From an uncultured Nitrososphaerota archaeon (GTDB lineage: Bacteria > Bacillota > Clostridia > Oscillospirales > Ruminococcaceae), in contig CAKXAF010000002.1 in the NCBI GenBank assembly GCA_934869045.1, positions 1-37,539 of the forward strand: a stretch of DNA of 37,539 nucleotides, in the 5' to 3' direction. The notes beneath the pieces were generated by a model. That model was given only the letters and a program-made list of their open reading frames with translations, was not told where the DNA came from and did not search any database. A program made the position numbers and the translations under genes. Shown piece by piece: positions 4,189 to 37,539 of the stretch (its first letter is position 1; each line of letters opens with the position of its first letter).

Positions 4189-4409
4189 CAGGGATAGTGT
4201 TCCTCCTTGTAGCCTCACAACTGTTCCATCGCCGCGGGTGGTTCCGGGGCGGGACCCGGCCCGAAGTGTACTAAGCTGTGTCCTGACGGCTCATCTTCAG
4301 CAAGTGCTGCGCGGTCAACGATGCGTAATAGAAAGGGTGAGGAACCCTGACTACCAAAAGGAGGTTTAGCCATACCCGACAGGCCCTTCGACCTGCGTCT
4401 GCTTCAAGA

Positions 4410-4551
4410 AGGCGACAGCCGATGTTGGAGTTGGAGTTCGACGTGTTGTTGTAGTTCACGTAGAAAGGTCCGTGATTCTGGTTCTGGTTATAGTTACCGC
4501 CATGGTGCAGGCACGGGTTACCACCGTTGAAATTCCAGTTATCCGGGACAT
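4410..4551 (-). repeat. DGR template repeat (TR), non-coding
   Basis: 142 bp aligning with 4736-4877 at a constant offset of 326 (124/142 identical). In the VR frame it reads DNWNFNGGNPCLHHGGNYNQNQNHGPFYVNYNNTSNSNSNIGCRL, which is rich in AAC Asn codons as expected for a TR. Confidence 0.9.
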
Positions 4552-4629
4552 CGTCTGCTGCAAAGTTGACCCCGCGCTTTCCCCTTACCAAAGGAAAAGC
4601 GGTTTATAAGAGCGAAATCGCTCCATTTT

Positions 4630-4689
4630 GAAATTAAGAAACAGCGGAGGTTGGGGGAAGGGACTGCGGTCCCCTCACCCCAAACCCCC
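4630..4689 (-). terminator. Candidate intrinsic terminator after the DGR target gene
   Basis: A long imperfect GC-rich hairpin spans 4646-4689 (about 18 pairs, CGCA loop on the minus strand). On the minus strand it is followed by GCTGTTTCTTAATTTC. It starts 19 nt after the stop at 4708. Confidence 0.5.
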
Positions 4690-4707
4690 TCCTCGCCAGG
4701 GGAATGG

Positions 4708-23200: not shown

Positions 23201-23733
23201 GAGTCAACGGATGTCTGAAGTTTTACACCAGCCGCGGTAAACGTGCCGATGTTCCGGGTCATTTCCGTGAAGTTGTAGATCGTCTTGTCCGCGTAGGTGT
23301 TCAGCTCATCCAGCGCCCGGTTCACCTGCTGAAGATTGGTCCCTTCGTGCTGGGTGTTCGCCAGGATGGTCTGCACCGCTCCGATCTGGGTCTCATACTC
23401 CTGAAAACCGGTTTTGATGGGGTCGATTGTAAGGGCGGACACAAGCCGTTTTTCCGTGTTCAGGGCTGAATTTGTAATGTTGGAAAGGGTCGTCATGGCA
23501 ACGACTTCAAGCGCCGAGAATTTCGCCCGAACCGTCTCGACGGAGCTGCTAAGGGCGGACATATTGCACTTCTTAGCAGCGTCGCCCAGGTTTTCAAGTC
23601 CCTTGGCAGCACCGTCCAGATCCAAACCCTGCTTGAGTTTGTCGAGTGTCGACAGACTGGTCTGCACATTCCGCTCAAACTGTCTGTTGTCAAATCGCAT
23701 CTCGACGATTCTCTCGTCGATGGTCCTGCTCAT
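14206..23733 (-). CDS. Tail tape measure protein, ~3175 aa
   Basis: The N-terminal core (..QQVNRALDELNTYADKTIYNFTEMTRNIGTFTAAGVKLQ..AISGSTSQQASTAMYQLSQALAAGRVSLMDWNSVVNAGMGG..) matches my memory of the TP901-family tape measure core. Long Gly/Ala-rich hydrophobic stretches and several tandem arrays follow. Start is taken as ATG 23733, which forms an ATGA overlap with the upstream stop and has AAGGAGG 10 nt upstream. Confidence 0.9.
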   Translation of the reverse strand: MSRTIDERIVEMRFDNRQFERNVQTSLSTLDKLKQGLDLDGAAKGLENLGDAAKKCNMSALSSSVETVRAKFSALEVVAMTTLSNITNSALNTEKRLVSALTIDPIKTGFQEYETQIGAVQTILANTQHEGTNLQQVNRALDELNTYADKTIYNFTEMTRNIGTFTAAGVKLQTSVDSIKGIANLAAISGSTSQQASTAMYQLSQALAAGRVSLMDWNSVVNAGMGGKVFQDALVRTSELLGTGAQNAINMYGSFRESLTRGEWLTTEVLTETLKQFAGAYTEADLVQQGFTEAQAKEIAQMAQTAEDAATKVKTFTQLWDTLKESAQSGWTETWEILVGDFDEAKALLTEVFNTIGGIIGESAQARNELLSGGLSSGWKQLLDQGIADEAGFIESIQAVARESGDAFDQLVADSDSFTDALKQGLKDGVISSETLSEAVYHLQGKMSGMSQEERKAAGYTSEMVEQIETLADSLRDGSVSMDEFTEKILRPSGRENLIQSVWNAAKGLVSVIAPIKDAFRDIFPPATSDQLYALTETLRSFSERLTISDETADKLQRTFKGLFSMLDLGRQAIMAVVNAVMPMAGGIGSLADGLLTVTAAIGDFLTGINDAAKKGKVFSKVAQGIADALGFVVSGIQTFIGFLGDVFAIPGFEAFQALLGRIQTRIGQVIDAVGGLGFGVDDAVNTMDSAVGNSKFLQMLQSLFNGVKTIASGIIGVLGGLSATLIDAIGNADFSGVIDLLNGISLGGIAVGITKFMNSLTKSFDDVGGLLDNVKGILDGVRGCFEAYQTQLKAGTLLKIASAIAVLAAAIVTISLIDSGKLTASLGAITVLFAELMASMAIFSRISGEVKGVVKGTAAMIGVSTSVLLLASALKKISDIEPEQMVVALAGIAGLMTALVAAAKVLGSGSSSVIKGSAQMVVFAGAIKMLASACIDLAQLDFAGVAKGLTGVGVLMAEVSLFTNTVKVNKGAMATAAGILVLASAMKVFASACKDFGQMNAGELVKGLSSVGAVLLEITAFTKLTGNAQGLISTGLAMIEIGAAMKIFASAMADFGGMFLAEIGKGLLAMGGALAEVAIAMKAMPKNLITTGAGLVTVGAALNVLAEALGKMGGMSWEAIAKSLVAMGGALAELAVGLNFMNGTLAGSAAMLVAASALAVLTPVLFTLGSMSWEAIAKGLITVAGAFTVIGTAGALLTPLLPTILGLGGAFALIGVGIAGLGAGLLLVGTGLTAIAVGITGLATSLGAGVTIIVAGLTSIITGIAALIPAIAQQLGEAVIAFAGVITNGAPAIGNAVKALVLTLVDVLVECVPAIANGALELIAGVLAALAAYTPQIVDSIMQFLIEVIDGLARNLPTLIQSVVNLLMSFFSGIVSALGSIDTDALLKGVVGIGLLSGIMVALGALAGLIPSAMVGVLGLGVVMAELAVVLAAIGGLAQIPGLDWLIGEGGKLLQTIGNAIGGFIGGIVGGFMGGISGSFPQIGADLAAFMTNVQPFIDGARGIDAAMLDGVKALTEAILLITAADLLEGLTSWLTGGSSLSAFAGELVPFGEAMMKFSNSIAGLDGNLVSTAAIAGKTLAEMAATLPNRGGIAGFFTGENDMDEFGNQLVGFGGSMMRFAASIKGLDADAVNNAAIAGKAMAEMAATLPNTGGAVAFFAGDNDMSAFGDQLVLFGEAIKAYSDAVTGLDVDAVKNSAIAGQAMAELAATLPNTGGAVAFFAGDNDMATFGAQLASFGVSMKNYSKSVSGLDSDAVANSAIAGKTLVELANTIPNTGGLVAFFTGDNDLETFGDQLVPFGEAMKAYSDSVTGMDSEAVTASATAAKALAELQASLPNIGGVVDFFTGGNDLETFANGLLPFGEGMKAYADSVTGLDAGAVSASITAAQALSALQASLPHVGGVLEFFTGGNDLGAFADGVLSFGLAMKSYGGAVSGIDAGAVSASAVAAQALAELQASLPNVGGIMEFFTGGNDLETFSEGVIPFGEAMKSYGEAVAGINAGAVEASGVAAQSLAKLQAALPQVGGVMEFFTGGNDLGKFSEGIVPFGAAMKSYGEAVAGINAEAITASAVAAQSLAQLQTDLPNVGGVMTFFDGGNDLGIFAAGIVPFGAAMKSYGDAVADINTGAITASAVAAQSLARLQESLPLAGGVMEFFNGSHDLAAFAAGIIPFGAAMKSYSDAVADINPTAVESSASAGQALVELANTLPNTGGLLSFFTGGTDLAAFGDDLTAFGADLAAYAEAIKDVKPEAVTASANAASALSNLATGLPDSSLFDQWFGGDQTLASFGADISKFGASMKDYYNEISGIDLGKLSDVITQVWDLIELAEGVNGVNTSGLTKFADSMKKMGDAGISGFADAFYNCGGTVNSAVVSMLTSVRGSITSNIPVASSAMETLVESMADIVDKKVVVIESAVEGMMRNLAVSILSSSGAVKTAAGTVASAAVSQINSMKPEFETAGENAGQGFVKGIRSKFSASSSAGRSLGLAALNAAKKALDSHSPSREFIYLGENIGEGLAIGVDNSIVPAAQATSDMIGEVIAVSSKGIDAWKDWVDEKTYYDELSLKDQLVGWENLQKRYKAGSEERKQIDREVYQLQNELVASTYQASLDWIEEEKYYNRLSTEEELAAYERMQSRYMEGSEERKKIDREVYTLRNQLVDESYQNSMDWIEKEKNYGRMSLADELAAYKRVQSRYAAGSKEREEMDLKVYQLEQEIYEAQKQYIADVQSVQESANQKRIQLEQEYADKVRSVNEQLERDIQSLNDQYQNAVESRTNSLYQSYGLFDEVTKKEAVSSDTLMKNLEGQVQEFGEWQDILGQLSARGVDADLISELQEMGPSAIEEIRALNSMSDDELEKYVSLWSVKHAQAREQATSELEGLRVETQEQIAQLRADAEAELEEYRITWQEELSQLEEDTADQLASLRQEFAENVGLIKKDTEAEMREMTEAATKILKEAGWTETGQQIPAGLAEGVSLSKSAFLDELTSMALAGVEAVKSTLKINSPSRVFRELGNFTGLGFVTGLADYAKKSYAAGANVAEYAADGLSNAMSITAELLSGDMDAQPTIRPVLDLSDVMRGADELNSLFYPQRTIGLAGQASLAFAESGRSGGTVVNVDNGDIVEELRALRSEMAEMTERMERMRVVLDTGTLVGEMAGPMDNALGQRVTRRGRGN
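15556..16077 (-). repeat. 3 x 174-bp (58-aa) in-frame tandem repeat in the tape measure C-terminal part
   Basis: Units start at 16077, 15903 and 15729 (DWVDEKTYYDELSLKDQLVGWENLQKRYKAGSEERKQIDREVYQLQNELV / DWIEEEKYYNRLSTEEELAAYERMQSRYMEGSEERKKIDREVYTLRNQLV / DWIEKEKNYGRMSLADELAAYKRVQSRYAAGSKEREEMDLKVYQLEQEIY). Confidence 0.85.
16741..19131 (-). repeat. ~13 x 186-bp (62-aa) in-frame tandem repeat array in the tape measure
   Basis: Unit consensus is FFTGGNDLxxFxxGxxPFGxAMKSYxxAVxGIxxxAVxASxxAAQxLAxLQxxLPxxGGVxE. The register was checked at 19131, 18945, 17457, 17271 and 16899, all separated by multiples of 186. Confidence 0.9.
20150..21000 (-). repeat. ~5 copies of a 56-58-aa hydrophobic repeat in the tape measure (approximate bounds)
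   Basis: Recurrent ..A(M/I)K(M/V/I)(L/F)ASA..D(L/F)(A/G)(Q/G)(L/M)...(V/I)(A/V/G)KGL..(V/M)G..L.E.. units. The MSWEAIAK motif recurs at 20212-20220 and 20380-20388 (168-bp spacing). KxFASAxxDFG motifs occur near 20590, 20765 and 20940 (~175-bp spacing). Confidence 0.6.
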
Positions 23734-24107
23734 GACCGTGTGACCTCCTTCCATGCGTAATCTGCGATCTGGTCAAAAATAGGCTGGATAGCAGGGTTGA
23801 TGTAATCTCTTCCCTGTACCCAGCCTCCGGTCCCAGTGCCATGTCCGTATTGCAGGATAATGGCAATGGGAACTCCATTTTGAACATTTGAATTGTGAAA
23901 CGAGATGGTGACGGTGTTGTCCCTGTTGGTAATTTTGTAATACCAGGACGCGGCCGTCTCTCCGGAGTCAACAGGCGTTGCAGACGCAAGGGCGGCCACG
24001 CCTTCCCGGCCAAACTTGTCCAGATCGCCGAGATGAACCGTCTCCTTTGCTCTTTCCAGAAATCGGGTCAGCTTGGAAAAATCGCCCTTGTGTCTGAAAC
24101 GAATCAC
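23730..24107 (-). CDS. HK97 gp10-like tail/head-tail joining component
   Basis: 125 aa with a GTG start 6 nt after GGGAGGAG. The pattern ..ATPVDSGETAASWYYKI......ILQYGHGT......DYINPAIQPIF resembles the HK97 gp10 family (V.tG.l..S....., .YGT, ...PF..pA). Confidence 0.6.
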   Translation of the reverse strand: MIRFRHKGDFSKLTRFLERAKETVHLGDLDKFGREGVAALASATPVDSGETAASWYYKITNRDNTVTISFHNSNVQNGVPIAIILQYGHGTGTGGWVQGRDYINPAIQPIFDQIADYAWKEVTRS

Positions 24108-27191: not shown

Positions 27192-28226
27192 TCAGGACTC
27201 CAGAGTCAGGCCGGTCAGAGTATAGATCTTGGTGACAGAGGAGCTGTCCTTGGTGGAGATTACCTTGACGCTCTGGGAATTGTTCTTGATGGGCAGAACA
27301 ATGTTCTTGTCCTCATCCAGAGCCACAGCCCCCTTGGTGCCGCCCACCAGCTCCACGGTGGTGGTGGCGTCGGCCGGAGCGACGTCAAATTTCAGCGCCA
27401 GATAGTGCCCCTTCTGCTCAGAGGGATCGCTGCTGAACCCGGTATAGCCGGTCACATTCTTCAGGCTGCCGGTGATGGCGCTCTCGCCCACTACGACGTT
27501 GCTCTGAAGTTCGGAGACCTTCTTGCCCAGCAGGGTGGCGGAGGGGCTCTCCGGGGCGACGGTCACTGTAACATCGTTCGCCAACAGCTTGATGACTTCC
27601 TCGGGCAGAGGCAGCCGGGGCTCCGTTTCCTCGGTGCCGTAGAGGATGTCCTCCAGCGCCTTCAGCTTGGCAGGGTCGGCCTTGGTGGAGGTGATGATCA
27701 GACGGGCAGTGGGCTTGAAGCCGGGTACGTCCACGGGAGTGGTCGTGACCTCCCAGCTGGGGTTGATGGGTTCAGGAGAGTCGTTGACAGTCTGATAGCC
27801 CCGCTCAGAGGGAGAGGCCAGACCGCCGTAGACCAGGTGCAGCTTATAGCCGTGGTCCTGACCGTCCACATCGTTGCCCAGCTTGGTGCGGTAGCTCAGG
27901 CCAAAGACCTTGCGGGTCTGCTGGCCGGCCATCACGCCGGGGGCGATCTCCGCGGAGCCGTCGCACTCCTCCCACTCGTCGGGGTAGGTGTAGCACTCAA
28001 TGGTCAAACCGAAGTCCTCGGCGCCCACCAGCACCAGGTACTTGATGTTGTCGGCGTACATGTTGTTGGGCTCGGCGCCGGAGGGGCTCTCGTTAATGGC
28101 GGTGATGCCGCTCCAGGCTATACCCCTGTCGTAGACGCCGGTGGCGCTGATGGGGTAGAGGACGGCGTGATCGATGCCGGTTTCGTAGAAACGTTCCCCG
28201 ATCTTGTCCCATACGAGTTTACTCAT
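27192..28226 (-). CDS. Major tail (tube) protein with a C-terminal Ig-like extension
   Basis: 344 aa. The N-terminus MSKLVWDKIGERFYETGIDHAVLYP...GIAWSGITAINESPSGAEPNNMYADNIKYLVLVGAEDFGLTIECYTYPDEW is typical of Gram-positive siphovirus major tail proteins. The terminator immediately downstream fits a highly expressed gene. Confidence 0.8.
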   Translation of the reverse strand: MSKLVWDKIGERFYETGIDHAVLYPISATGVYDRGIAWSGITAINESPSGAEPNNMYADNIKYLVLVGAEDFGLTIECYTYPDEWEECDGSAEIAPGVMAGQQTRKVFGLSYRTKLGNDVDGQDHGYKLHLVYGGLASPSERGYQTVNDSPEPINPSWEVTTTPVDVPGFKPTARLIITSTKADPAKLKALEDILYGTEETEPRLPLPEEVIKLLANDVTVTVAPESPSATLLGKKVSELQSNVVVGESAITGSLKNVTGYTGFSSDPSEQKGHYLALKFDVAPADATTTVELVGGTKGAVALDEDKNIVLPIKNNSQSVKVISTKDSSSVTKIYTLTGLTLES

Positions 28227-28242
28227 TTCGGATTTCCTCCTT

Positions 28243-28566
28243 TTAATAGTACAGGTTGAAGATGTCGTGGTTCAGATTGTCGGCCGTGAAATGACGGTCG
28301 TGGGCGCACATGGGCAGCATGGCAAGGCGGTGGGGCAGATCGCTGTCCGGGTTCTTGTAGATGGCCGTCACCTGATACCGGTCCAGCAGTCGGTAGGGGG
28401 CGTTGTCAGCGTGGATGGCGCTGATTTCGCTTCGCTCGTAGACGATGCAGGGGTACTGGATTTCCTTGCTGGCCGGAGGCTGAAAATAAGCCCGGCACGC
28501 ATCGCCGCGTTCCGGACAGCCAAGAATCCCGCACAGAAGGGTATGAAGTTGAATCCTGTCACCCAT
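28243..28566 (-). CDS. Head-tail connector / tail completion candidate
   Basis: The track ORF is trimmed to ATG 28566 (MGDRIQLHTLL...), which overlaps the upstream stop (ATGGGTGA). Length is 107 aa. The function is suggested only by its position between capsid and tube genes. Confidence 0.55.
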   Translation of the reverse strand: MGDRIQLHTLLCGILGCPERGDACRAYFQPPASKEIQYPCIVYERSEISAIHADNAPYRLLDRYQVTAIYKNPDSDLPHRLAMLPMCAHDRHFTADNLNHDIFNLYY

Positions 28567-28873
28567 TATAGAGCCCCCCAATCGTCAGGATCAGGCGGGG
28601 ATATCCCACTTCGACCTTGGAAATCTTCCATTTCGCGCCCATGTACGCCACATACCGCATCTTGTGGAAGTTCTTCCTGGCGAACGGATCGGCGACTATG
28701 CTGATCTCATTCGCGATATTGATGTCGTCGTTCAGGGTCTCCCCAGACTGAAGCTGGCGTGTATTCCGAGTCAAATCGCCATAGTACGGATACTCAACGA
28801 TCTTCTCTTCATACACGCCAGGGGCAGTCTCAACGGTATCAGCATAGCCTACCGATCCATAAAATTTCGCCAT
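28559..28873 (-). CDS. Conserved head-tail module protein
   Basis: 104 aa, MAKFYGSVGYADTVETAPGVYEEKIVEYPYYGDLTRNTRQLQSGETLNDDINIANEISIVADPFA...AKWKISKVEVGYPRLILTIGGLYNG. I recall a similar family immediately after capsid genes of Gram-positive siphoviruses. Confidence 0.6.
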   Translation of the reverse strand: MAKFYGSVGYADTVETAPGVYEEKIVEYPYYGDLTRNTRQLQSGETLNDDINIANEISIVADPFARKNFHKMRYVAYMGAKWKISKVEVGYPRLILTIGGLYNG

Positions 28874-28887
28874 TTTGAAGCTTCTCC

Positions 28888-30792
28888 TCAGGGAGTGCCG
28901 GCGCCGGAACCACCGCCGGAGCTGGCGGCCACAGGCTCCTCCAGCGCGATGGCGGAGTAGACGCGGGTCAGCGCGCCGGACAGGCGGGTCTCGATCAGGT
29001 ACTTCTGCTGGTTGAAGTCGATGTCGAACTGGTCAAACCGGGTGATCTCGCCCCCCTTGGTGGAGCCCACGGTATAGTCAGCCAGGTTGACAAAGAGGCC
29101 CAGCAGCTTGTGCTTGGTGCCCTCATCGTCCATACGGACCAGGCCCTCAAACTGCTCGGCAGTATAGAGCTCGCCGATGTTCAGGGCGGCGGCCAGGTCG
29201 GCCTTGGAGTTGTAGATGCGGCGGCCGTTCATGTCCCGGGCCAGCAGCATCACGTTCACCAGATGGGGCGTGCAGAAGAAATCGGGGGTGCCGGTGCCCT
29301 TGTACTTCTCCCGGGCATAGAGAGCGGCGGTGATGATGGCCTCGGAGTAGATGTAATTCTCGCCGAAGCTCATATCGGTCTTGCTGCCGTTGAGCTCGGC
29401 GCGGGCGGCCTCAATATCCACGTCGTAGTGGATGGTGTAGAGGTCGTTGTCGTTCCAGATGGAACGGATGTGGTCCTCGGAGATCTTCATCTCGTCGTCC
29501 GCTTCGCGGCCGTCGCCCACCATGATGGCGGTAGCCACCTCTTCGTTGAGGTTCTCCCGCATCACGGCATACTGGTACTCCACCACATCGAAATCAGTGA
29601 TGTCGACAATGTCGTCCCGGTGCAGGGCGTCGGTGCGGTACACCGTCTGAGGGTCAGTGGTCCGGGTGATGACGTTCATGTTGCCGGACAGAGTCTTGCG
29701 CTTGCCCTTCTGATAGCCGTGGGCCCGGATGGAGTCCTTGCGGGTGTCCATCTGGCGGGTACGAATGCGGCTGATGGGGCTCTTGTGGACCTTCTGCATG
29801 ACAGCAGTCACCCAGCCCTGGTCGCGGGTAACGCGCTCAGGCGCGCCGGGGCGCAGGTCCTTGAAGTCCGGGAACAGGCTCTCGATATTGTCGATGCCGT
29901 GCTTGAGCTCGTTCTGCTCAGCGTAGATCTTCAGAGCGGTCTGAAGGCTGCCCACGCTGTTGCTCTTGGCCAGAGCAAGAATGTCAGCGCGGTCGGAGTG
30001 GCTCAGAACGGTGTCCTGAGTGTCTTCGTTCTCGAAAACATTGTGCTTCATGGTCTTGTTTCCTCCCTTGGTTTTGTCAGATTTCTTGTCGGGGTCGTCG
30101 TCATCGTCGTCGCCCCCGTCCCCCTTGCCCTTCTGGGAATCCAATTCCTCCATGGCCGCGGCGATCAGGGCATACATGACCGTTCTCTGCTCCTCGGTCA
30201 TGCTGTCCACCACGTCCTGGACGGTCTTCTCATCCTCAGGCTTCTCCTCTTTTCCGTCGCCCTTGGGCTTGTCCTCCTTCTTGCCATCCTCAGAGCCGGC
30301 CTTGTGAACAAGAGGGGGTTTCTCGTCGGGGCGGAACAGGGAAATGGGCTCGTAAGCGGACAGGATCATCTCCTGCTCGCCGCCTTCGCCATGGGCCATA
30401 TCCACAAAGTCAATAAAGGCGCCGGGATTTGCCCCGGCGACCACCAGGCTGACCTCCCGGATGACGCCGTGCGTCACATCCTTGCTGGGGGTCTGCTTCA
30501 GCCCATTGGCGTAGATGGACAGGGACGCAATGTCCCCATGCTGGACCAGCATCTTGGCCGCCTTGCCGGCGTCGGTCTCGTTGAATGTGCAGTAGGCGTA
30601 AACGCCGTCCTTCCGGTTCTCCAAAAGGGCGTGGCCCAGGATGTTGCCAGGTTCGTCGTGCTGGTGGTTCCAAACCAGGGGAACCGTCTTCCCGTCGCAA
30701 TCCTCGAATGCGTTATGGCGGATGGTTCGTCCGTCCGCGCAGACAAGGTCGTTCCGGGTCGCCCAGCCACTAAAGTCATACTTCAGGTTCAT
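28888..30792 (-). CDS. Prohead protease (HK97/S78-type) fused to major capsid protein
   Basis: 634 aa. The N-terminus VPLVWNHQHDEPGNILGHALLENRKDGVYAY...HGDIASLSIYANG...VIREVSLVVAGANPGAFI is an S78 prohead protease pattern. Next comes a Lys/Asp/Glu-rich linker (..GKKEDKPKGDGKEEKPEDEK..GDGGDDDDDDPDKKSDKTKG..). The remaining ~380 aa are capsid-like. Confidence 0.75.
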   Translation of the reverse strand: MNLKYDFSGWATRNDLVCADGRTIRHNAFEDCDGKTVPLVWNHQHDEPGNILGHALLENRKDGVYAYCTFNETDAGKAAKMLVQHGDIASLSIYANGLKQTPSKDVTHGVIREVSLVVAGANPGAFIDFVDMAHGEGGEQEMILSAYEPISLFRPDEKPPLVHKAGSEDGKKEDKPKGDGKEEKPEDEKTVQDVVDSMTEEQRTVMYALIAAAMEELDSQKGKGDGGDDDDDDPDKKSDKTKGGNKTMKHNVFENEDTQDTVLSHSDRADILALAKSNSVGSLQTALKIYAEQNELKHGIDNIESLFPDFKDLRPGAPERVTRDQGWVTAVMQKVHKSPISRIRTRQMDTRKDSIRAHGYQKGKRKTLSGNMNVITRTTDPQTVYRTDALHRDDIVDITDFDVVEYQYAVMRENLNEEVATAIMVGDGREADDEMKISEDHIRSIWNDNDLYTIHYDVDIEAARAELNGSKTDMSFGENYIYSEAIITAALYAREKYKGTGTPDFFCTPHLVNVMLLARDMNGRRIYNSKADLAAALNIGELYTAEQFEGLVRMDDEGTKHKLLGLFVNLADYTVGSTKGGEITRFDQFDIDFNQQKYLIETRLSGALTRVYSAIALEEPVAASSGGGSGAGTP

Positions 30793-32032
30793 TTTGAACG
30801 TTTCCTCCTTCAGATGTTGATGGTGGCTGATTGCCCTCCTCTTTCGGGGCGCTTAGGTTGCTGTTTCGGAGCTCGTCCGCCTTGGGGTCCTTCGACGGCT
30901 TCATGCCGATCTTCTGCCGGATCTCATTGGAGGTCATGATCTCGTTGCGGGTCATCTTGTCGGCAATTTCGGCAATATCGTTGATGGGCACCAGCCGGAA
31001 CGGGTCTCTGAAGAAGAGGATCGACTGCTTCTGTGACCGAGCAGTTTTGGTGAGGAATTTCCTCTTCATTTCGTCAACAATGGCTGATAGGATCGGTTCA
31101 ATCGTCCGGTTGTCGTAATTCAGCTTCGTCCGGTCATCGGCAGTCCCGTCCAAAATCCCCTGCGTGATCCCCAACTGGCTGTAAAGCATGCTCGTCAGGT
31201 ATTCAATCTGGGACATCAGATTGTTGTCGATGGGCCGGTTCAGCTGGACCACATGCTCCGTGCCGTCGGTGTAAGCGACGCCGTACTTGGAGTCGGACAA
31301 CTGTTCCTCGATATCTTTACGGCGTTTTTCCGCCTGTTGACGCCTCGCTTCCGTCTTGATGACGTAGGGCAGCTGAATGATCAGGTTGAGTTTTCCGGAA
31401 CCGCTCTGCTCGTCGATTGCGTCCAAAATATTGAGCTTTCGGATCAACCGCTGCATGGTGGAGTTGGGCTCGTTCATCACCGCGAAAAACGGGTTCTCAA
31501 TGATGGCGACCCCGCTCTTCGGCAGGATGACATCCTGCTTCTCACCCCGGTTCTCGTTGTAGACCCGGACCTTGACGTGCTTGGGATACCACTCCACGAT
31601 TTTCCCGGTACGCATCGTTTCGATCTTGAACGAGCCGGTCTCCGGGTCGAGGTCGGTATCCGTGGGCACGATGGCCACGCATCCCTCGTCCAGCATGGAC
31701 ATGACCACGTCCTGGATAAAGGCTCGCCCGGTCTGGTCCAGATTCGCCTCCAGGGTCAGACAGCCGTTCAAACTTGAATTGATCACCTCTGTAAACCGGC
31801 CGTCGTCATCCAGGCGGACATGCTGAATCCCAATCGACGCCGCGTCCAGCGCGATCCGGTTGTAGACGGAGGTAATGATGGAGCGCTCGTTTCCCCGGCT
31901 GAAAATGGGCCGGTCCGGGCGGTAGGAGTAGCTGGGACCAAGGGAATAGCTGTACTTGAAAAACTCATTGCCTAAAAAAGCGTTCCAGGCGTGTTTCAGC
32001 CTGGAACCAACTGACATTTCCACTTTTCTCAC
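30776..32032 (-). CDS. Portal protein (by position and size)
   Basis: 418-aa ORF between terminase and protease-capsid, with its stop overlapping the capsid gene start by 17 nt. The start is ambiguous: GTG 32032 abuts the SD AGGAGG, GTG 32023 lies 8 nt after it, and ATG 32017 lies 14 nt after it. Confidence 0.65.
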   Translation of the reverse strand: MRKVEMSVGSRLKHAWNAFLGNEFFKYSYSLGPSYSYRPDRPIFSRGNERSIITSVYNRIALDAASIGIQHVRLDDDGRFTEVINSSLNGCLTLEANLDQTGRAFIQDVVMSMLDEGCVAIVPTDTDLDPETGSFKIETMRTGKIVEWYPKHVKVRVYNENRGEKQDVILPKSGVAIIENPFFAVMNEPNSTMQRLIRKLNILDAIDEQSGSGKLNLIIQLPYVIKTEARRQQAEKRRKDIEEQLSDSKYGVAYTDGTEHVVQLNRPIDNNLMSQIEYLTSMLYSQLGITQGILDGTADDRTKLNYDNRTIEPILSAIVDEMKRKFLTKTARSQKQSILFFRDPFRLVPINDIAEIADKMTRNEIMTSNEIRQKIGMKPSKDPKADELRNSNLSAPKEEGNQPPSTSEGGNVQNEPEV

Positions 32033-32035
32033 CTC

Positions 32036-32530
32036 CTACGACAGCAGATCGGCGTACATCTTCTTGAGCAGCTCGTCGTTCTGCTTCATCAAGGCCGCGA
32101 AGTCGTAAGCCGGAGGAGGCTTTGCCGCGGATGCCTGCTTTGTGGCCGAGGCAACGGTTTTTACCGTCTGCTGGACGCTGCTGCCCGGAGACGGCCCGGG
32201 AGTCCGAAGCTGGCTGACCGGCGTCGAGAAGACGGAGGCGCTCTTTTGAAGCTGCTCCACAGCCCGCTTTCCCTGCTCTGCCTTTGCGGCCAGCTCCGCC
32301 GCCTTTTTCGCCCCGTGCCGTTTTACCAGATAAGCGGTAAGAACGATTCCTGCGGCTGCCGCCGCTCCCACGGCCGCTTTTCCGGCTGCGGGCAGCTTCT
32401 TCCGCTCGGGTCCATCCTCACCGCCGTACCGTTTCCGGCCCTGGGGCGTCAAGCTTCCGTCCTTCTGCTGAAATCTCCGCACGCCCCACTTCATCCCACG
32501 GATGCCGTAGTGCTGCAAAACATCTGACAA
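32036..32530 (-). CDS. HYG-x-GMKWGVRR-motif protein D (one central TM segment)
   Basis: 164 aa with a TTG start 9 nt after TAGGAGG. The N-terminus is MSDVLQHYGIRGMKWGVRRFQQKDGSLTPQGRKRYG, and the hydrophobic segment is AAVGAAAAAGIVLTAYLV. Confidence 0.7.
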   Translation of the reverse strand: MSDVLQHYGIRGMKWGVRRFQQKDGSLTPQGRKRYGGEDGPERKKLPAAGKAAVGAAAAAGIVLTAYLVKRHGAKKAAELAAKAEQGKRAVEQLQKSASVFSTPVSQLRTPGPSPGSSVQQTVKTVASATKQASAAKPPPAYDFAALMKQNDELLKKMYADLLS

Positions 32531-32595
32531 TCGCGGTCACCTCCTATCTGTGATAAAATTTGTAACAACTGTCCCGTGTGTATCTAATTTAGGTC

Positions 32596-32631
32596 AAAAA
32601 AAAAACCACAGACCCGGTTAAGAGTCTGTGG
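32596..32631 (-). terminator. Rho-independent terminator (8-bp stem + T10) on the minus strand
   Basis: The minus strand reads CCACAGACtcttaaccggGTCTGTGG followed by TTTTTTTTTT (plus-strand A10 at 32596-32605). Confidence 0.75.
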
Positions 32632-32648
32632 TGAGGCGTTTCGCCGCT

Positions 32649-32677
32649 TTGACAGGGCGAATGCTGTGTAGTATAAT
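32649..32677 (+). promoter_or_regulatory. Consensus sigma-70/SigA-type promoter on the plus strand
   Basis: TTGACA (32649-32654), a 17-nt spacer, then TATAAT (32672-32677). Both hexamers are perfect consensus. It lies in a lower-GC 500-bp gap. Confidence 0.7.
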
Positions 32678-32690
32678 GCGGTAAAAAGTG

Positions 32691-32733
32691 GCCGCCAGTA
32701 ACGTTCGAGTGCAAGTCAGACATTACTGGCGGC
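32691..32733 (+). promoter_or_regulatory. 5' leader stem-loop of the moron transcript
   Basis: GCCGCCAGTAA (32691-32701) pairs perfectly with TTACTGGCGGC (32723-32733), giving an 11-bp stem and a 21-nt loop. It begins about 7 nt after the predicted transcription start. Confidence 0.5.
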
Positions 32734-32757
32734 GCAGTGGAAAGAAGGACGGAGAAT

Positions 32758-32910
32758 ATGAAACCCAATGAAAAGACAACAATCCTCGATCACAACACCC
32801 TATTCGATCTCGCCGTTAAATCCGCTTATGTCATAGCAAAAACATTGGATGAACGGTATGCCGATAGGGATCGGTCGGAAGTCACGCCGGTTATTCACTG
32901 GTATCATTGA
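32758..32910 (+). CDS. 50-aa moron ORF, unknown function
   Basis: Below the ORF-track size cut-off. Manual translation gives MKPNEKTTILDHNTLFDLAVKSAYVIAKTLDERYADRDRSEVTPVIHWYH*. GAAGGAcGGAG lies upstream of the ATG. It is flanked by the consensus promoter and a plus-strand terminator. Confidence 0.55.
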   Translation: MKPNEKTTILDHNTLFDLAVKSAYVIAKTLDERYADRDRSEVTPVIHWYH

Positions 32911-32922
32911 TTCCGATAGGAG

Positions 32923-32956
32923 GAGGGCGGCGCCATGCCGCTCTCTTTTCTTCTTT
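32923..32956 (+). terminator. Rho-independent terminator of the moron (plus strand)
   Basis: GAGGGCGGC-gccat-GCCGCTCTC (9 pairs including one G-U) is followed by TTTTCTTCTTT. Confidence 0.65.
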
Positions 32957-32961
32957 CCTGT

Positions 32962-32984
32962 AAAAACCGATGGTCGACCATCGG
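32962..32984 (-). terminator. Minus-strand terminator after motif protein C
   Basis: An 18-bp perfect palindrome CCGATGGTCGACCATCGG (32967-32984) is followed on the minus strand by TTTTT (32962-32966). It lies 50 nt after the stop at 33035. Confidence 0.6.
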
Positions 32985-33034
32985 AAATTACCAAATGTAG
33001 TCATAAGATCCGCAGGGCCCGGTTAAAAACTGCG

Positions 33035-33589
33035 TCAATGAGCATAGTACGCCCGCAGCTTTCTGTTCTCGCTGATGGCCTTTCCAGCGAGCAAAGCGTT
33101 CACGATTGTTCCGCCCACTGCGATAGCTGAGCCCGCAAGTTGTGCCGTCCGCTGGTCTTCCATCCCTTTGGATAAGAGTGAACTTACCGCATAGGAACCA
33201 ACTACTATGGCCGTTTCCGCTAAATAAGCAGTTCGGGTATTCCCGGTAATGGTCTTGCCGCGCTGATAAAGTTTCTTGCCTTCATCCGCTAACTTGTCGG
33301 TCTTCAGTTTACCATAGGCATCTTCCATCCGACGTTTTTCGGTTTTGACGGCCCGATTAGCGTCCTTGACCTGCTGCCGGGTAGCCTGCCCGGATTTATG
33401 GGCGGCTTTCGTTTCTACCGCTTTTGATTTGGCACGTTCATAGTCCGATTCGGCTTTGCGATAGCGCTCCAGTCCTTTTCGGGTATAGGAACCGTCATAG
33501 TTCTGATAACGCCTAACGCCCCATTTCATGCCTTTGATGCCGTAATGGGCAAGGCAATCCTGGGGAGAAGGTTTCTCATAGGGCTTCAT
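33035..33589 (-). CDS. HYG-x-GMKWGVRR-motif protein C (two C-terminal hydrophobic segments)
   Basis: Track ORF 33035-33619 begins at a TTG inside the A8G10 tract. ATG 33589, 6 nt after the G-run, is preferred. The motif reads LAHYGIKGMKWGVRRYQNYDGSYTRKGLERY, and the hydrophobic segments are TAIVVGSYAVSSLL and LAGSAIAVGGTIVNALLAG. Confidence 0.7.
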   Translation of the reverse strand: MKPYEKPSPQDCLAHYGIKGMKWGVRRYQNYDGSYTRKGLERYRKAESDYERAKSKAVETKAAHKSGQATRQQVKDANRAVKTEKRRMEDAYGKLKTDKLADEGKKLYQRGKTITGNTRTAYLAETAIVVGSYAVSSLLSKGMEDQRTAQLAGSAIAVGGTIVNALLAGKAISENRKLRAYYAH

Positions 33590-33595
33590 AAGTAT

Positions 33596-33613
33596 CCCCC
33601 CCCCCTTTTTTTT
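33596..33613. repeat. Homopolymer tract C10T8 (minus strand A8G10) at the terminase / protein C junction
   Basis: C x10 at 33596-33605 and T x8 at 33606-33613. The terminase TAA stop (33612-33614) overlaps the A-run. The G-run is the only SD-like element for ATG 33589. Confidence 0.9.
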
Positions 33614-35360
33614 ACTCAAATGCTTCCGGGTTGTGTTTATAGGCGACGTAGGCGTCCATCATGGCCGCCACCGCGTCGATCTTCTGGTCAGACCGCTTTT
33701 TCAGCAGCTTACGGTTGCCGTTGGTGTCCTCCATCGTGATGCAGTTGCCCATAGAGAAGGTGATTAAGTCCTCGTCAAAGAGCAGCATCCGCTCTCCGGC
33801 CAGCTTCTTCAGCTCGCCCAGGGGGACGGATTCCGTTCTCGCGCCCTGCCGGACCACCTCGACCCCAAACGGGCCGTTCTCATTGACCCAGCGTTCCACA
33901 AATTCCTTGGCGTTGTAGGGGTCATATCCAAAGCAGCGCACATCGTAGCCGCAGTTGATGATGTGGTCGTCCAGATCCTCATAGACCTGCATCATGTCGA
34001 GAACTGTCCCCTCCATAACGATCAGGCTGCCCTCTGCCATAAAGTCCTCGTACTTGACCCGCATGGCCGCCGGGAGCTTATGGAGCGTCACCGATGTGAT
34101 GTAGTTGCGCGACTTAACGCCAAAGGAACCATCCCGAAGAGGGAACAGGAACGTAAAGGAGCAGAAGTCGTCGCCCTGGGAGAGATCGGCGCCCATGGAG
34201 CAGGGCATCTGCCAAAACCGCTGCCGGCGGTGTGGCAAAGTCTCCTCGTAGGTGAAGTAGTAGGTGTACCCCTCCATAGGGAGGCCGAACCGCTTTGCCA
34301 GCATGTCATTCCGCGTGGCGGGGGCGGTTTCCGCCCGATCCACATCCTTCTGATAGGTCTCATAGGTGACGGTCTTTCCCAGATTCGGGTTGGCCTTGGG
34401 CCACATATCGGGGTAGGCCACCTCCTCAACGGAGTCCAGCTTGTACCACCAGATGGAAACATGTTCCTGCGGAGGACCGATGCCCTGGAGAATGTTCATC
34501 AGCTCCATTTTGATGGTATCGCCAGCGCCGTTGCGGACTGTACCCTCGGAGCTGGTGGCTATAATAAGGTAGTCGTCCAGCTTGGAGGCGCCCTGTTCCA
34601 CCGCGCCGATGACGTCCTCCCGGGCGTCGGCGGAGGACAGCCACTCGTCCACGGTAGCCACTTTGCAGCGCAGACCCTGGAGCTTGTCCACCGACATAGG
34701 ACGGATTTCGACCAGGGAGCCTGAAATGAAATTCTCAATGCCCTTCTTGGTAGAGGCCAGCTTCACCCGGTTGGCCCGGGACCCGGTGGTGTTCTGCAAA
34801 GACCCCTCGGTCATGAACTGGAAGACGGGGCCTCTGGCCCGGGTGATGGCGGTCTTGATGGGGTTGATGATCTCCTCGGCCTGCTTCATGGTGGGGGCCG
34901 TGGTGATCTGATGGGTGGTGGAACCGTCCACAACGCAAAAGTATGCCTGAATGCAGGAATCGTAGAGCGACTTCGCCGCACCCCGTCCCACGATCAGGTA
35001 CTGCTTTTTGGTCAGCCGCTGCTTGATCCGCTTGGTCACATAGCGTCCGCCTCTGCCGTCCGGATTGGGCACATAGACAGAGCGGTCGTCGAAATAGTAC
35101 CAGCCAAACACCTGTTCCCCCCAAAGCTTGAAGGTGTCCAGAAGATGCAGGTCGGAACCATCGGTCAGGGTCAGCTCGTTCTCGCAGAACTCGATCCAGC
35201 CCTCTACCGCCCTGTCGTCATAGTAGTAGCTAGGCGACTCGATCAGCCGGTCGATCCGGTACATCTCCATGGCAACTTCCTTGCAGACCGGAATATCGCC
35301 GCGGATGACCGCATCGCGGAATGCGCCGTAGTAACGGGGGACGGCGGTGTTGGATAACAT
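33612..35360 (-). CDS. terL: Terminase large subunit
   Basis: 582 aa. It has a Walker A-like LIVGRGAAKS, a Walker B-like KVATVDEWLSS, and a C-terminal nuclease-type region (..CFGYDPYNAKEF..QKIDAVAAMMDAYVAY). Confidence 0.9.
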   Translation of the reverse strand: MLSNTAVPRYYGAFRDAVIRGDIPVCKEVAMEMYRIDRLIESPSYYYDDRAVEGWIEFCENELTLTDGSDLHLLDTFKLWGEQVFGWYYFDDRSVYVPNPDGRGGRYVTKRIKQRLTKKQYLIVGRGAAKSLYDSCIQAYFCVVDGSTTHQITTAPTMKQAEEIINPIKTAITRARGPVFQFMTEGSLQNTTGSRANRVKLASTKKGIENFISGSLVEIRPMSVDKLQGLRCKVATVDEWLSSADAREDVIGAVEQGASKLDDYLIIATSSEGTVRNGAGDTIKMELMNILQGIGPPQEHVSIWWYKLDSVEEVAYPDMWPKANPNLGKTVTYETYQKDVDRAETAPATRNDMLAKRFGLPMEGYTYYFTYEETLPHRRQRFWQMPCSMGADLSQGDDFCSFTFLFPLRDGSFGVKSRNYITSVTLHKLPAAMRVKYEDFMAEGSLIVMEGTVLDMMQVYEDLDDHIINCGYDVRCFGYDPYNAKEFVERWVNENGPFGVEVVRQGARTESVPLGELKKLAGERMLLFDEDLITFSMGNCITMEDTNGNRKLLKKRSDQKIDAVAAMMDAYVAYKHNPEAFE

Positions 35361-35378
35361 CGGTTCACCAGCCTCCCG

Positions 35379-36263
35379 TTACAGCCCCAGCGCTTTTCTG
35401 CCAAGGAGAACCAGGGTGGAGAACTTCTGCTCGCTCAGCTTTGTCCGGTAGGTATCTTTTGGAATAACCTGCTCCATGTCGAACACGATGATGGGCGATT
35501 TGGCCTTGAAACCGCCGTAAATGGCGTCGTTCGTGTCAAGGAGCGCGCCGTAGCCCGCCTTTTTGCATTCGTTAAAAAACTTGGTGCGCTGGACATAGAC
35601 GTCATGCCCCTTCCATCGGTCACCCTGTCCGTCATATGGAATCACATAATTGAACATCCGATAGACTGTCTGGAGATCTTTGGCCGAGGGCGTATAGTCC
35701 GGGTCCTTCATCCTTTCCAACACTGCGGCAGCTTCCCGATACCCCTTGAATTTGTACTTGTCTTTCACGAAATAGCTCTGCATCCGGTCCTTATCCGTTA
35801 CAAAGTTATAAAAATCCCGATCTTTTCGATAGAGATTCATGAAGACCTCTGCGCCGGAGTCCTCGCTCGCCACCTTCAAGTCAGTTTTAAGCGAGTTGTC
35901 GATCCGGTACTTCATAAACGCGCCGGTTCCGATTTGCTTCCCATTCTTGTCATATACCGGCTGCGGGATCGGCCGGTTGAACAGTGCGTTATACTGGTGC
36001 TTGTCCAGGGAATTGTGGGTTGCGTAGAACATATCGGTGTTCTTGGTCCGGTCCTTGTCATAGGACAACGTGCTCAGGGTCGTCTTATCGGCGTTCAGCA
36101 CTTCGTCAAAGTGCTTCTTGTTGTAGATACTGTTGCCGCTCTTCCGCTTATTGCGGATGGCTTTTTTCTGAGCCGGAGTGTAGTCGCCGCCCCGCAGGGG
36201 ATAGGGAGGACCGTTCCGAACGCCCCACTTCTGTTTCAGAATTCCATGGTGATACAGTTCCAT
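35379..36263 (-). CDS. Divergent HYG-motif protein B with a ~250-aa globular C-terminal domain of unknown function
   Basis: The track ORF starts at TTG 36269; ATG 36263 is preferred. The N-terminus is MELYHHGILKQKWGVRNGPPYPLRGGDYTPAQKK. It lies immediately upstream of terL. Confidence 0.65.
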   Translation of the reverse strand: MELYHHGILKQKWGVRNGPPYPLRGGDYTPAQKKAIRNKRKSGNSIYNKKHFDEVLNADKTTLSTLSYDKDRTKNTDMFYATHNSLDKHQYNALFNRPIPQPVYDKNGKQIGTGAFMKYRIDNSLKTDLKVASEDSGAEVFMNLYRKDRDFYNFVTDKDRMQSYFVKDKYKFKGYREAAAVLERMKDPDYTPSAKDLQTVYRMFNYVIPYDGQGDRWKGHDVYVQRTKFFNECKKAGYGALLDTNDAIYGGFKAKSPIIVFDMEQVIPKDTYRTKLSEQKFSTLVLLGRKALGL

Positions 36264-36269
36264 AAACAA

Positions 36270-36785
36270 CTACCCCCGCAATTCCTTGATTGCAAGGGCA
36301 ATGCTCAGGGAAGACCCTGCGATCGCCAGAACGCTTCCCGCCACTTCCAGCGTATCCCGCAATGCCTGCCGCCCTTTGGAAACCTGAGCCGGGGAGGTGT
36401 TCGCGAACAGCTGATTGTATTGCCGCTCCAGAAGTTCCCGGTTGATCTTATCCCGCATCTCCTTGTCGGTCATCTTGCTCAGATCCATCCGTTTCGGAGC
36501 TGGCTTGGACGTGCTGGTCTGCTCCAGCTTTTTCATCTCCTTCACCAGATCCGAGCTGGAGTCGACGGTTTTCTTGGTCCGCTCCAGGTCCTCCTTAGCC
36601 CAGCGCTTCGGGTCCGGGTTGGACAGGTCGATGCGGTTCTCCTTCTTCTTGGCCGCATTTTCCCGCTTATCCCGGTCATAGCGTTTTTCACCGGCGGCGG
36701 TCAGGGTGCCGTCTTTGTTCTGGTAGCGGCGGACGCCCCACTTCATGCCTTTGATGCCGTAGTGCAGGAGCATGCTATTCTCCAT
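36270..36785 (-). CDS. HYG-x-GMKWGVRR-motif protein A (C-terminal TM anchor)
   Basis: 171 aa, ATG 9 nt after GGAGG. The N-terminus is MENSMLLHYGIKGMKWGVRRYQNKDGTLTAAGEKRYD, and the C-terminus is LEVAGSVLAIAGSSLSIALAIKELRG. Confidence 0.7.
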   Translation of the reverse strand: MENSMLLHYGIKGMKWGVRRYQNKDGTLTAAGEKRYDRDKRENAAKKKENRIDLSNPDPKRWAKEDLERTKKTVDSSSDLVKEMKKLEQTSTSKPAPKRMDLSKMTDKEMRDKINRELLERQYNQLFANTSPAQVSKGRQALRDTLEVAGSVLAIAGSSLSIALAIKELRG

Positions 36786-37161
36786 TTTGACTTTCCTCCT
36801 TCCCGCTGGTGTTCTTCACGGGGTCCGCTGCAATAAAAAGCCGCCACTCAAACTCGCTGATCTGCCGGTTGATGGACTCAATGGCAGCGGAGCTGAGAGG
36901 CGGGTCGAATAACAACCGAACCTTCATGTAAACGTAGGATTTGACTAAGGAAAAGATGTTCGGCTTATCCTGAATAAATCCGGACCAGATTTCATCTTTT
37001 CCTGAGATTGAGAAACCGTTGGCAGGTCCAACGCCCATTTGCGTCAGGATGGAAAACACGCTGTTGATGTGGATGATAATGTCCGGGTCAAAGTGCGTGT
37101 AGCTCTCGTCGATGCCCAACAGTTTCTTGATGGATATCAGGATGCTTTCGGAAATCTCCAT
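36775..37161 (-). CDS. gp6-like head-tail connector / putative DNA-packaging family protein
   Basis: 128 aa, ATG 5 nt after GAGGAGG. The pattern SIKKLLGIDESYTHFDPDIIIHINSVFSILTQMGVGP...VKSYVYMKVRLLFDPPLSSAAIESINRQISEFEWRL matches my memory of Phage_connect_1-type proteins. Confidence 0.55.
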   Translation of the reverse strand: MEISESILISIKKLLGIDESYTHFDPDIIIHINSVFSILTQMGVGPANGFSISGKDEIWSGFIQDKPNIFSLVKSYVYMKVRLLFDPPLSSAAIESINRQISEFEWRLFIAADPVKNTSGKEESQNGE

Positions 37162-37171
37162 AACAGCCTCC

Positions 37172-37384
37172 TCACCGGCGGACTGCGATGAACTTCTTCA
37201 TGCAGTACCCCTGGGTGCCATTGGAGGTCGATACTTTATAGAAAGCATCTGTTGACTCGTCTATATTGACGGAAACTCTGGTCAGAGCCGTAATGACTGT
37301 AAGGACTTTGGAATTTGCTCTCGGCTCTTGATAAAGCGCCGCTCTCAGGCAATTCGTCACAACACCGGCAGCATGATTCTCCAT
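37172..37384 (-). CDS. Small hypothetical protein (possible SH3b-like fold)
   Basis: The track ORF is trimmed to ATG 37384 (MENHAAGVVTNCLRAALYQEPRANSKVLTVI...FYKVSTSNGTQGYCMKKFI), which has GAGGAGG 7 nt upstream. The fold guess is weak. Confidence 0.5.
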   Translation of the reverse strand: MENHAAGVVTNCLRAALYQEPRANSKVLTVITALTRVSVNIDESTDAFYKVSTSNGTQGYCMKKFIAVRR

Positions 37385-37539
37385 ATCGAATCCTCCTCGT
37401 ATAATAAGTTTCAAAGTTAATAGTTTCAGGTATCAGCAGGCTTTGAGGTGCCCGTGATACAATAGCTGTAGGACAGCAGGGTCAAGTTCTGAGTCCTCCG
37501 GTTGAGCCGTAAGGCTACTTCACTGAAAGTCTGTTCCCC

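Follow-up and report, generated by a model that had tools for sequence, protein, structure and literature searches.

Morons are accessory genes of phages, of which HK97 gene 15 and the lambda genes bor and lom are the classic examples (Juhala et al. 2000; Cumby et al. 2012, PMC3594210). The definition used here, which is taken from PMC3594210, comprises four features: extra DNA relative to close relatives, deviant composition, a promoter and terminator of the gene's own, and expression from the repressed prophage. The first three of these four are displayed by a small opposite-strand gene with its own signals in the 504-bp gap at positions 32531-33034 of contig CAKXAF010000002.1, a stretch of 37,539 nucleotides (nt) that is referred to below as the window. 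We assign a probability of roughly 0.78 to the reading that this unit is an independently transcribed accessory gene, i.e. a moron, situated between the large terminase (TerL) and portal genes of a temperate siphovirus-like lineage, at a hot spot for cargo.

Like the classic morons, the unit is extra DNA in the late structural operon with a deviant content of guanine and cytosine (GC), a promoter and terminator of its own, and a dispensable small gene. It is unlike them in running against the late operon and in being bracketed by two additional late-sense terminators, and its product is a soluble 50-residue orphan rather than a membrane protein or lipoprotein. It is also seen at one site in one lineage only. 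An initial annotation of this DNA had proposed a self-contained moron cassette on the opposite strand, and this proposal is supported by the extra DNA, the foreign composition, the unit's own signals and the purifying selection described below.

The opposite-strand unit and its relatives

The window covers the late region, which holds the structural genes of a siphovirus-like phage and is transcribed from the minus strand. The gap is the largest in the chain of late genes. With 47.4% GC, where the window averages 57.7%, it ranks in the lowest 1% of all 504-nt windows, much as the initial annotation had singled it out for its size and low GC. The composition of the unit is foreign, and the small open reading frame (ORF) has a GC content at third codon positions of 0.48 as against 0.75-0.80 in the TerL and portal genes. 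The initial annotation was right that the gap falls in the interval between terminase and portal, but the two genes are not its direct neighbors. Instead, it is flanked by two minus-strand genes of the DUF7211 family (PF23847), at 33035-33619 on the terminase side and at 32036-32530 on the portal side.

All parts of the unit, namely promoter, hairpin, ribosome-binding site, ORF and terminator, are on the plus strand within the gap. The putative promoter, of the SigA/sigma-70 type, reads TTGACA-17-TATAAT at 32649-32677 (-35 element at 32649-32654, -10 element at 32672-32677) and agrees with the consensus at 12/12 positions. It is the sole 12/12 match in 28000-37539 and the only match in the whole window even when one mismatch is allowed, with 0.03 matches expected by chance (100 shuffles). 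Its -10 element is invariant in 12/12 distinct homologous sequences, and the -35 element varies between TTGACA, TTAACA and TTAATA. Transcription would start near 32684, and about 7 nt further on begins a 5' leader hairpin, a near-perfect palindrome at 32691-32733 with arms of 14 nt that are 93% complementary, ~16-18 pairs, a 7-nt loop and a folding energy of -23 to -33 kcal/mol. The ribosome-binding site GAAGGA (32744-32749) is part of an invariant GGAAAGAAGGA tract and stands 8 nt upstream of the ATG of the gene for the 50-residue protein MKPNEKTTILDHNTLFDLAVKSAYVIAKTLDERYADRDRSEVTPVIHWYH (32758-32910). An alternative in-frame GTG start at 32737 would yield 57 residues but, as it abuts the hairpin, is left without a ribosome-binding site. 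The intrinsic terminator of the small gene consists of a stem at 32919-32949 and a T-rich tail that extends to 32958; a 21-codon ORF within it (from 32936) was discarded, as an indel breaks its frame in L007-type sequences. Both the promoter and the terminator are kept in the homologous sequences. The perfect promoter, the ORF with its Shine-Dalgarno sequence and a plus-strand terminator, given as 32923-32956, had been recognized in the initial annotation. The leader hairpin that it described is likewise present, but with longer arms than the 11 bp assigned to it.

Two further intrinsic terminators, both in the late sense on the minus strand, bracket the unit and had been overlooked. The first, T1, occupies 32962-32984, where the palindrome CCGATGG-TCGA-CCATCGG (32984->32967) is followed by TTTTT. 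It terminates the upstream late-sense gene and forms the right-hand edge of the conserved module, conservation coming to a stop at 32992-32994. The second, T2, lies directly upstream of the plus-strand promoter at 32596-32632, with its stem at 32632->32605 and its T-run at 32604->32596. A scan for tRNA and tmRNA genes yielded nothing.

These signals suggest a simple course of expression. The consensus promoter would be read by the housekeeping sigma factor and would fire opposite to the late operon, giving a monocistronic mRNA of about 270 nt (~32684 to ~32958) that begins with a very stable hairpin, which most likely shields the 5' end from exonucleolytic decay. GAAGGA and the ATG would direct translation of a soluble, mostly one-helix protein of 50 residues, and the intrinsic terminator would stop the transcript short of the next late gene. 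T1 and T2 would keep transcription of the late operon from crossing the unit in antisense. In the full-length RNA the ribosome-binding tract may pair with the pyrimidine-rich 3' tail and thereby dampen translation. This logic of promoter, hairpin-capped mRNA, protein, terminator and insulation is well supported at the level of sequence and comparison.

A BLAST search of the module against 158 fetched loci recovered it in full only in a subset of the closest relatives. Seventeen loci have a TerL of 98% identity or more; the module is present in 7 of these and absent from the other 10. In three of the loci (L021, L080 and L082) TerL is 99.7-100% and the portal about 99.5% identical, the same two DUF7211 neighbors are retained, and so is the segment 32531-32664, which contains T2 and the -35 element; yet 32665-33034 is absent, and its place is taken by 59 unrelated nt whose source was not found in any fetched locus. 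As the left breakpoint falls in the promoter spacer, these three are probably deletion derivatives. The phage can do without the small protein.

The insert amounts to roughly 350 bp among head genes. In 112 relatives the interval from TerL to portal measures between 13 bp and 3.6 kb, with 0-4 DUF7211 genes in it, and this wide variation in size and content marks it as a hot spot for cargo. Other relatives hold different self-promoted units or consensus promoters in this interval (L077 among the loci noted), and in several of them the promoter is on the sense strand. In L037, around plus-strand coordinate 8943, a perfect antisense TTGACA-17-TATAAT drives an unrelated ORF of 72 residues in AT-rich DNA; the antisense TTGACA-16-TATCAT of L104, L105 and L106 is not accompanied by a conserved ORF, and prophages of the L022 type have a TTGACA-18-TATAGT on the sense strand. 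The lineage, one of siphovirus-like phages from gut Oscillospiraceae/Clostridia, is taken to be temperate, since relatives whose TerL is 96% identical lie inside bacterial genomes, namely the complete chromosome AP018533.1, Muriventricola aceti and metagenome-assembled genomes of Oscillospiraceae; the evidence of integration concerns these relatives only.

The small gene and its product

Homologues of the small gene were detected in about 40 metagenomic and viral contigs. At the level of the peptide they comprise five 90%-identity clusters in a database of 5.8 billion proteins, 7 contigs of IMG/VR and 13 metagenome contigs, at least 4 of which are labeled human gut, and three further contigs encode divergent forms. 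A total of 104 sample blocks are indexed for the exact peptide, with a constant gene context. The initial annotation had advised a search for the peptide and the leader hairpin elsewhere, and both do recur, within one phage lineage and at one site. The peptide is absent from the GTDB representative genomes, though close TerL relatives are present there, and INPHARED phages contain neither a DNA nor a protein match.

The ORF was called as a gene in 23/23 contigs read, and its frame is kept in ten distinct ORF sequences of 50 or 52 residues. The loci L007 and L019 differ by 13 synonymous and 5 non-synonymous changes, corresponding to a ratio of non-synonymous to synonymous substitution rates (dN/dS) of 0.08, and for codons 21-50 the ratio between clades is 0.06-0.25 (Nei-Gojobori in both cases). 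Variable sites are distributed over codon positions 1, 2 and 3 as 18/9/30. The N-terminal 20 residues diverge fast; they are followed by an almost invariant core, KSAYVIAKTLDERYAD..D..VTPVIH.YH, and many synonymous changes fall within an invariant stretch of 16 residues of this core. Because its homologues keep the frame and dN/dS is low, the small ORF is a real gene under purifying selection. The initial annotation had held that conservation of the nucleotides but not of the ORF would speak against its proposal; the pattern found is the opposite one, with a predominance of third-position substitutions and synonymous changes in the core.

The peptide has no match in Pfam, PHROGs, PADLOC, NCBIfam or the sequences of the PDB. 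A profile search of 1.84 billion representatives retrieved only its own two 50%-identity clusters and four hits to long, multi-stretch proteins. The peptide is an orphan restricted to one phage lineage. It is hydrophilic, with a grand average of hydropathy (GRAVY) of -0.59, a maximum 19-residue hydropathy of 0.87 and no membrane segment, and AlphaFold2 models a single helix over residues 12-41 at a mean predicted local distance difference test score (pLDDT) of 68. Hence it is predicted, from a model of moderate confidence, to be a soluble protein consisting mostly of one helix, in line with the initial annotation, in which it was described as soluble and unrecognizable.

The functions suggested at that stage for the protein were guesses. 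Our own best guess, held with low confidence, is a conflict-type role in the lysogen, such as protection against superinfection, defense or counter-defense, in which the conserved helix and the aromatic/His-rich tail would bind a protein of the host or of a phage. The anti-CRISPR and anti-defense loci of prophages offer a parallel, in that they too combine a small orphan protein with a strong promoter in an insert among structural genes. In contrast to acr-aca loci, the present unit holds one terminator-insulated gene with no adjacent helix-turn-helix (aca-type) regulator, and, unlike anti-defense loci, its product has no homology and no PADLOC or PHROG match.

Hairpins, RNA folding and inversions

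Several stem-loops of Firmicutes, such as the ermC and aprE leaders and the stabilizer of phage SP82, are positioned at the 5' end of an mRNA and protect it from exonucleolytic decay. The leader of the small gene is similar in presenting a strong hairpin a few nucleotides from the 5' end of a short mRNA. It departs from these stabilizers in the approximately 7 unpaired nt predicted before the stem, counted from the putative start site, which is above the optimum for protection, and in that the palindrome could equally be a site at the level of DNA. Comparison of 12 distinct sequences at three hairpins, those of the leader and of both terminators, gave 95% paired positions overall, against 33-58% in slid controls. 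T1 carries a compensatory UA->CG pair in L160/L161. The stems are maintained, but the proof from covariation is weak.

The whole transcript folds far better than its shuffles (z -4.6), conservation within the module is highest in the 5' hairpin and the 3' tail, and the promoter faces the late operon. These properties would be expected if the functional product were the RNA, whether it regulates the late operon in antisense or is a small RNA that is structured or has a dual function, the ORF being incidental. We nevertheless regard this explanation as very improbable in view of the clear coding signature and of the frame kept in ten distinct ORF sequences. Furthermore, the transcript would end at ~32958 and overlap no late coding sequence, and a search of 32000-33700 at a permissive E-value produced no Rfam 15 family, the best match, on T2, reaching 18.3 bits where the gathering score is 39. 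The antisense or structured-RNA role that the initial annotation had allowed for thus finds no support. A search for a target of the loop or a repeated operator showed that the leader loop and hairpin arm do not recur in the window beyond chance. Sequence-specific pairing of the loop is also disfavored, because the window offers no other stretch complementary to it and because its orientation changes from lineage to lineage.

A second feature of the fold is a predicted 14-pair interaction that joins the ribosome-binding tract at 32739-32755 to the 3' tail at 32942-32958 and appears in single-sequence and consensus folds alike. Such 5'-3' sequestration is typical of toxin mRNAs of the hok and aapA types, and type I toxin-antitoxin loci are well known from prophages, e.g. 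hok/sok, bsrG/SR4 of SPbeta and ralR/ralA of rac. The present unit resembles them in its small prophage ORF, its very stable 5' hairpin and highly structured mRNA, and the predicted masking of the ribosome-binding site. A module of this kind would combine a toxic peptide and a stable, self-silenced mRNA with control by a small antisense RNA. The peptide, however, is hydrophilic and devoid of a membrane segment, quite unlike the usually hydrophobic products of such loci, and no antisense RNA gene is evident, since the best minus-strand promoter candidate in the module (32531-33040) scores 8/12. Variants in which the unit is naturally deleted are common. The pairing itself stays a prediction, because its positions are invariant and the partners are constrained otherwise, one as the ribosome-binding site and the other as the T-tracts of two terminators. 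Taken together, these features make it very unlikely that the unit is a type I module.

Three separate hairpins of the 460-bp module, those of the leader, T1 and T2, show a type of divergence in which loops and imperfect parts of stems are exactly inverted between related phages (L007, L019, L160, L161 and L003), with at least 4 events in a shallow tree. The leader hairpin of L019 is the exact reverse complement of that of L007, and the window-type clade and the clade of the 94% type also differ by its inversion. The T1 loop reads TTGC in L007 and GCAA in L019, and the T2 loop is inverted in L160/L161. The two orientations of the leader raise the idea of a programmed, phase-variable switch that controls the gene, but this is the least probable of the explanations considered here. 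Orientation is fixed within each type, being the same in 12/12 independent contigs of the window type and the opposite in 15/15 of the 94% type. The inverted core measures just 7-15 nt, which is far too short for recombinase-mediated inversion. Moreover, the flipped and the actual hairpin are equally stable as RNA, and the promoter and ribosome-binding site are unaltered in either case. The inversion of T1 and T2, which are unrelated hairpins, is in keeping with template-switch mutation during replication, a process described at hairpins (PMC8794818). Given that each orientation is fixed within its sequence type, we interpret the inversions as occasional events of this kind, and neither as a programmed switch nor as an artefact of assembly. 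They imply that it is the stem that matters and not the sequence of the loop. Selection on the hairpin specific to one strand of the RNA was considered and rejected, since both orientations are equally stable.

The standing of the unit and the DUF7211 hot spot

A number of points weigh against an interpretation of the unit as a moron. Promoter activity, the start site, translation and expression in the lysogen are predictions from its sequence. Among the closest relatives the change appears to be one of loss and not of gain. The module is seen in one phage lineage only and always at one site, so that the horizontal transfer between unrelated phages which marks classic morons is not in evidence. 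Homology places no constraint on the function of the protein. At the level of structure, just 3 compensatory pairs were seen, two of them in the leader hairpin, and shuffle controls were not exceeded; the predicted 5'-3' pairing is without covariation. In addition, because the leader hairpin is equally stable when flipped, selection could act on a DNA palindrome, e.g. a protein-binding site, and not on the RNA. Two variants of the gene also depart from the general pattern of constraint. The copy in L159 (P0007), which is divergent and has a weakened -35 element (TTAATA), is relaxed, with dN/dS of 0.8-0.96 relative to its nearest relatives, and the variant P0005 is apparently frameshifted and truncated to 31 residues, probably by an extra A in an A-run; these changes could be real decay or sequencing error. 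Both variants, together with the losses in close relatives, are what would be expected of a decaying remnant without current function. Such a remnant is highly improbable when set against the strong purifying selection in most lineages, the intact -10 element, ribosome-binding site and terminators, and the many samples in which the exact peptide is indexed. We therefore retain the view that the unit is an ordinary phage moron of textbook architecture and not a new kind of element.

In order, the wider late region includes a connector gene (36775-37161), two genes at 36270-36785 and 35379-36269, of which the first encodes a DUF7211 protein and the second probably does so, and TerL (33612-35360). 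Beyond the gap and its flanking genes come the portal gene (30776-32032) and a gene at 28888-30792 whose product has a prohead-protease (S78) domain at its N-terminus, all on the minus strand. The late genes further include a prophage-tail protein and an ORF of 3182 residues (14206-23754), the counterpart of a tape-measure (TMP_3) gene of ~3175 residues in near-identical contigs. In one relative (L165, 14969-16195) an IS110-family transposase gene is inserted beside an SH3_3 gene next to the connector gene, the contig being otherwise identical.

Three, and probably four, DUF7211 paralogues around TerL (36270-36785, 35379-36269, 33035-33619 and 32036-32530) share the N-terminal motif HYGIKGMKWGVRRYQ, and their C-terminal parts vary, some of them seeming hydrophobic on inspection. 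The upstream DUF7211 protein of L007 (5709-6680) contains a papain-fold glutamine-deamidase toxin domain (PF15644, E 2.6e-8) and is followed by two small ORFs. A literature search retrieved no paper on DUF7211. By analogy with MuF toxins, the DUF7211 module may serve to target polymorphic cargo or toxins to the virion. The MuF toxin/immunity cassettes of temperate phages (Jamet et al. 2017, PMC5576092) likewise feature a region of variable cargo beside the portal gene and a shared N-terminal module, here DUF7211, with at least one toxin domain (Gln_amidase in L007). They differ from the present case in that the small gene lies on the opposite strand as a transcription unit of its own and tracks no particular cargo protein.

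This setting raises the idea that the small protein is an immunity or neutralizing factor, made by the lysogen against the neighboring and possibly virion-associated DUF7211 cargo and protecting it from superinfection. The unit is always found among DUF7211 genes, whose products match a PHROG named 'virion structural protein'; the toxin domain in L007 recalls the polymorphic MuF toxins that are encoded beside the portal gene with immunity genes nearby (PMC5576092); and a constitutive promoter would suit an immunity function. We consider it unlikely all the same, because different DUF7211 neighbors accompany the same small protein in the window, L160 and L007, while the three deletion derivatives keep both neighbors in the absence of the small gene. 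In L007 the two other small ORFs that directly follow the toxin on the same strand are more conventional candidates for immunity, and the small protein shows no homology to any known immunity family. A broader proposal, rather unlikely in our judgement, is that the orphan is a new lysogen conflict protein that neutralizes DUF7211 cargo or effectors of superinfecting relatives or else counters host defense, its translation possibly being held in check by a closed 5'-3' mRNA fold like that of type I toxins. If true, this would link a new small-protein family to a polymorphic cargo hot spot beside the portal gene.

Other observations concern the surroundings of the unit. A conserved cassette at 32531-32632 precedes the portal-proximal DUF7211 gene and consists of the terminator T2, a leader of ~65 nt with the motif ACACACG...GTTGTnAAAAT, and then GGAGGTGACCGCGATTG. 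Nearly all relatives have it (e.g. L086, L093, L095, L104, L110 and L117), whether or not they carry the small gene and regardless of what is upstream. A strong terminator inside the late operon implies either antitermination or an unrecognized late promoter in the leader of the cassette. Far from the gap, at 3013-4877, the window contains a probable diversity-generating retroelement. Its reverse transcriptase gene (RVT_1, E 5e-8) is located at 3013-4218 on the minus strand and adjoins two direct repeats of 142 nt with 87% identity (4410-4551 and 4736-4877), one copy of which is inside the 3' end of the gene for a 912-residue Big_3-domain protein (4708-7446). The repeats are a candidate pair of template and variable repeat.

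As the architecture of the unit is textbook, no concept is changed by it. It does provide a clean case of a moron with clear bounds, in phages of human-gut Clostridia that are abundant but poorly studied, and the natural variants with and without the small gene, which differ by little else, offer a simple functional test. With it, the pool of orphan small-protein families, which has been yielding anti-defense and exclusion factors, grows by one. The surroundings, with the DUF7211 hot spot, the terminator cassette, the hairpin inversions and the diversity-generating retroelement, may be the more interesting lead.

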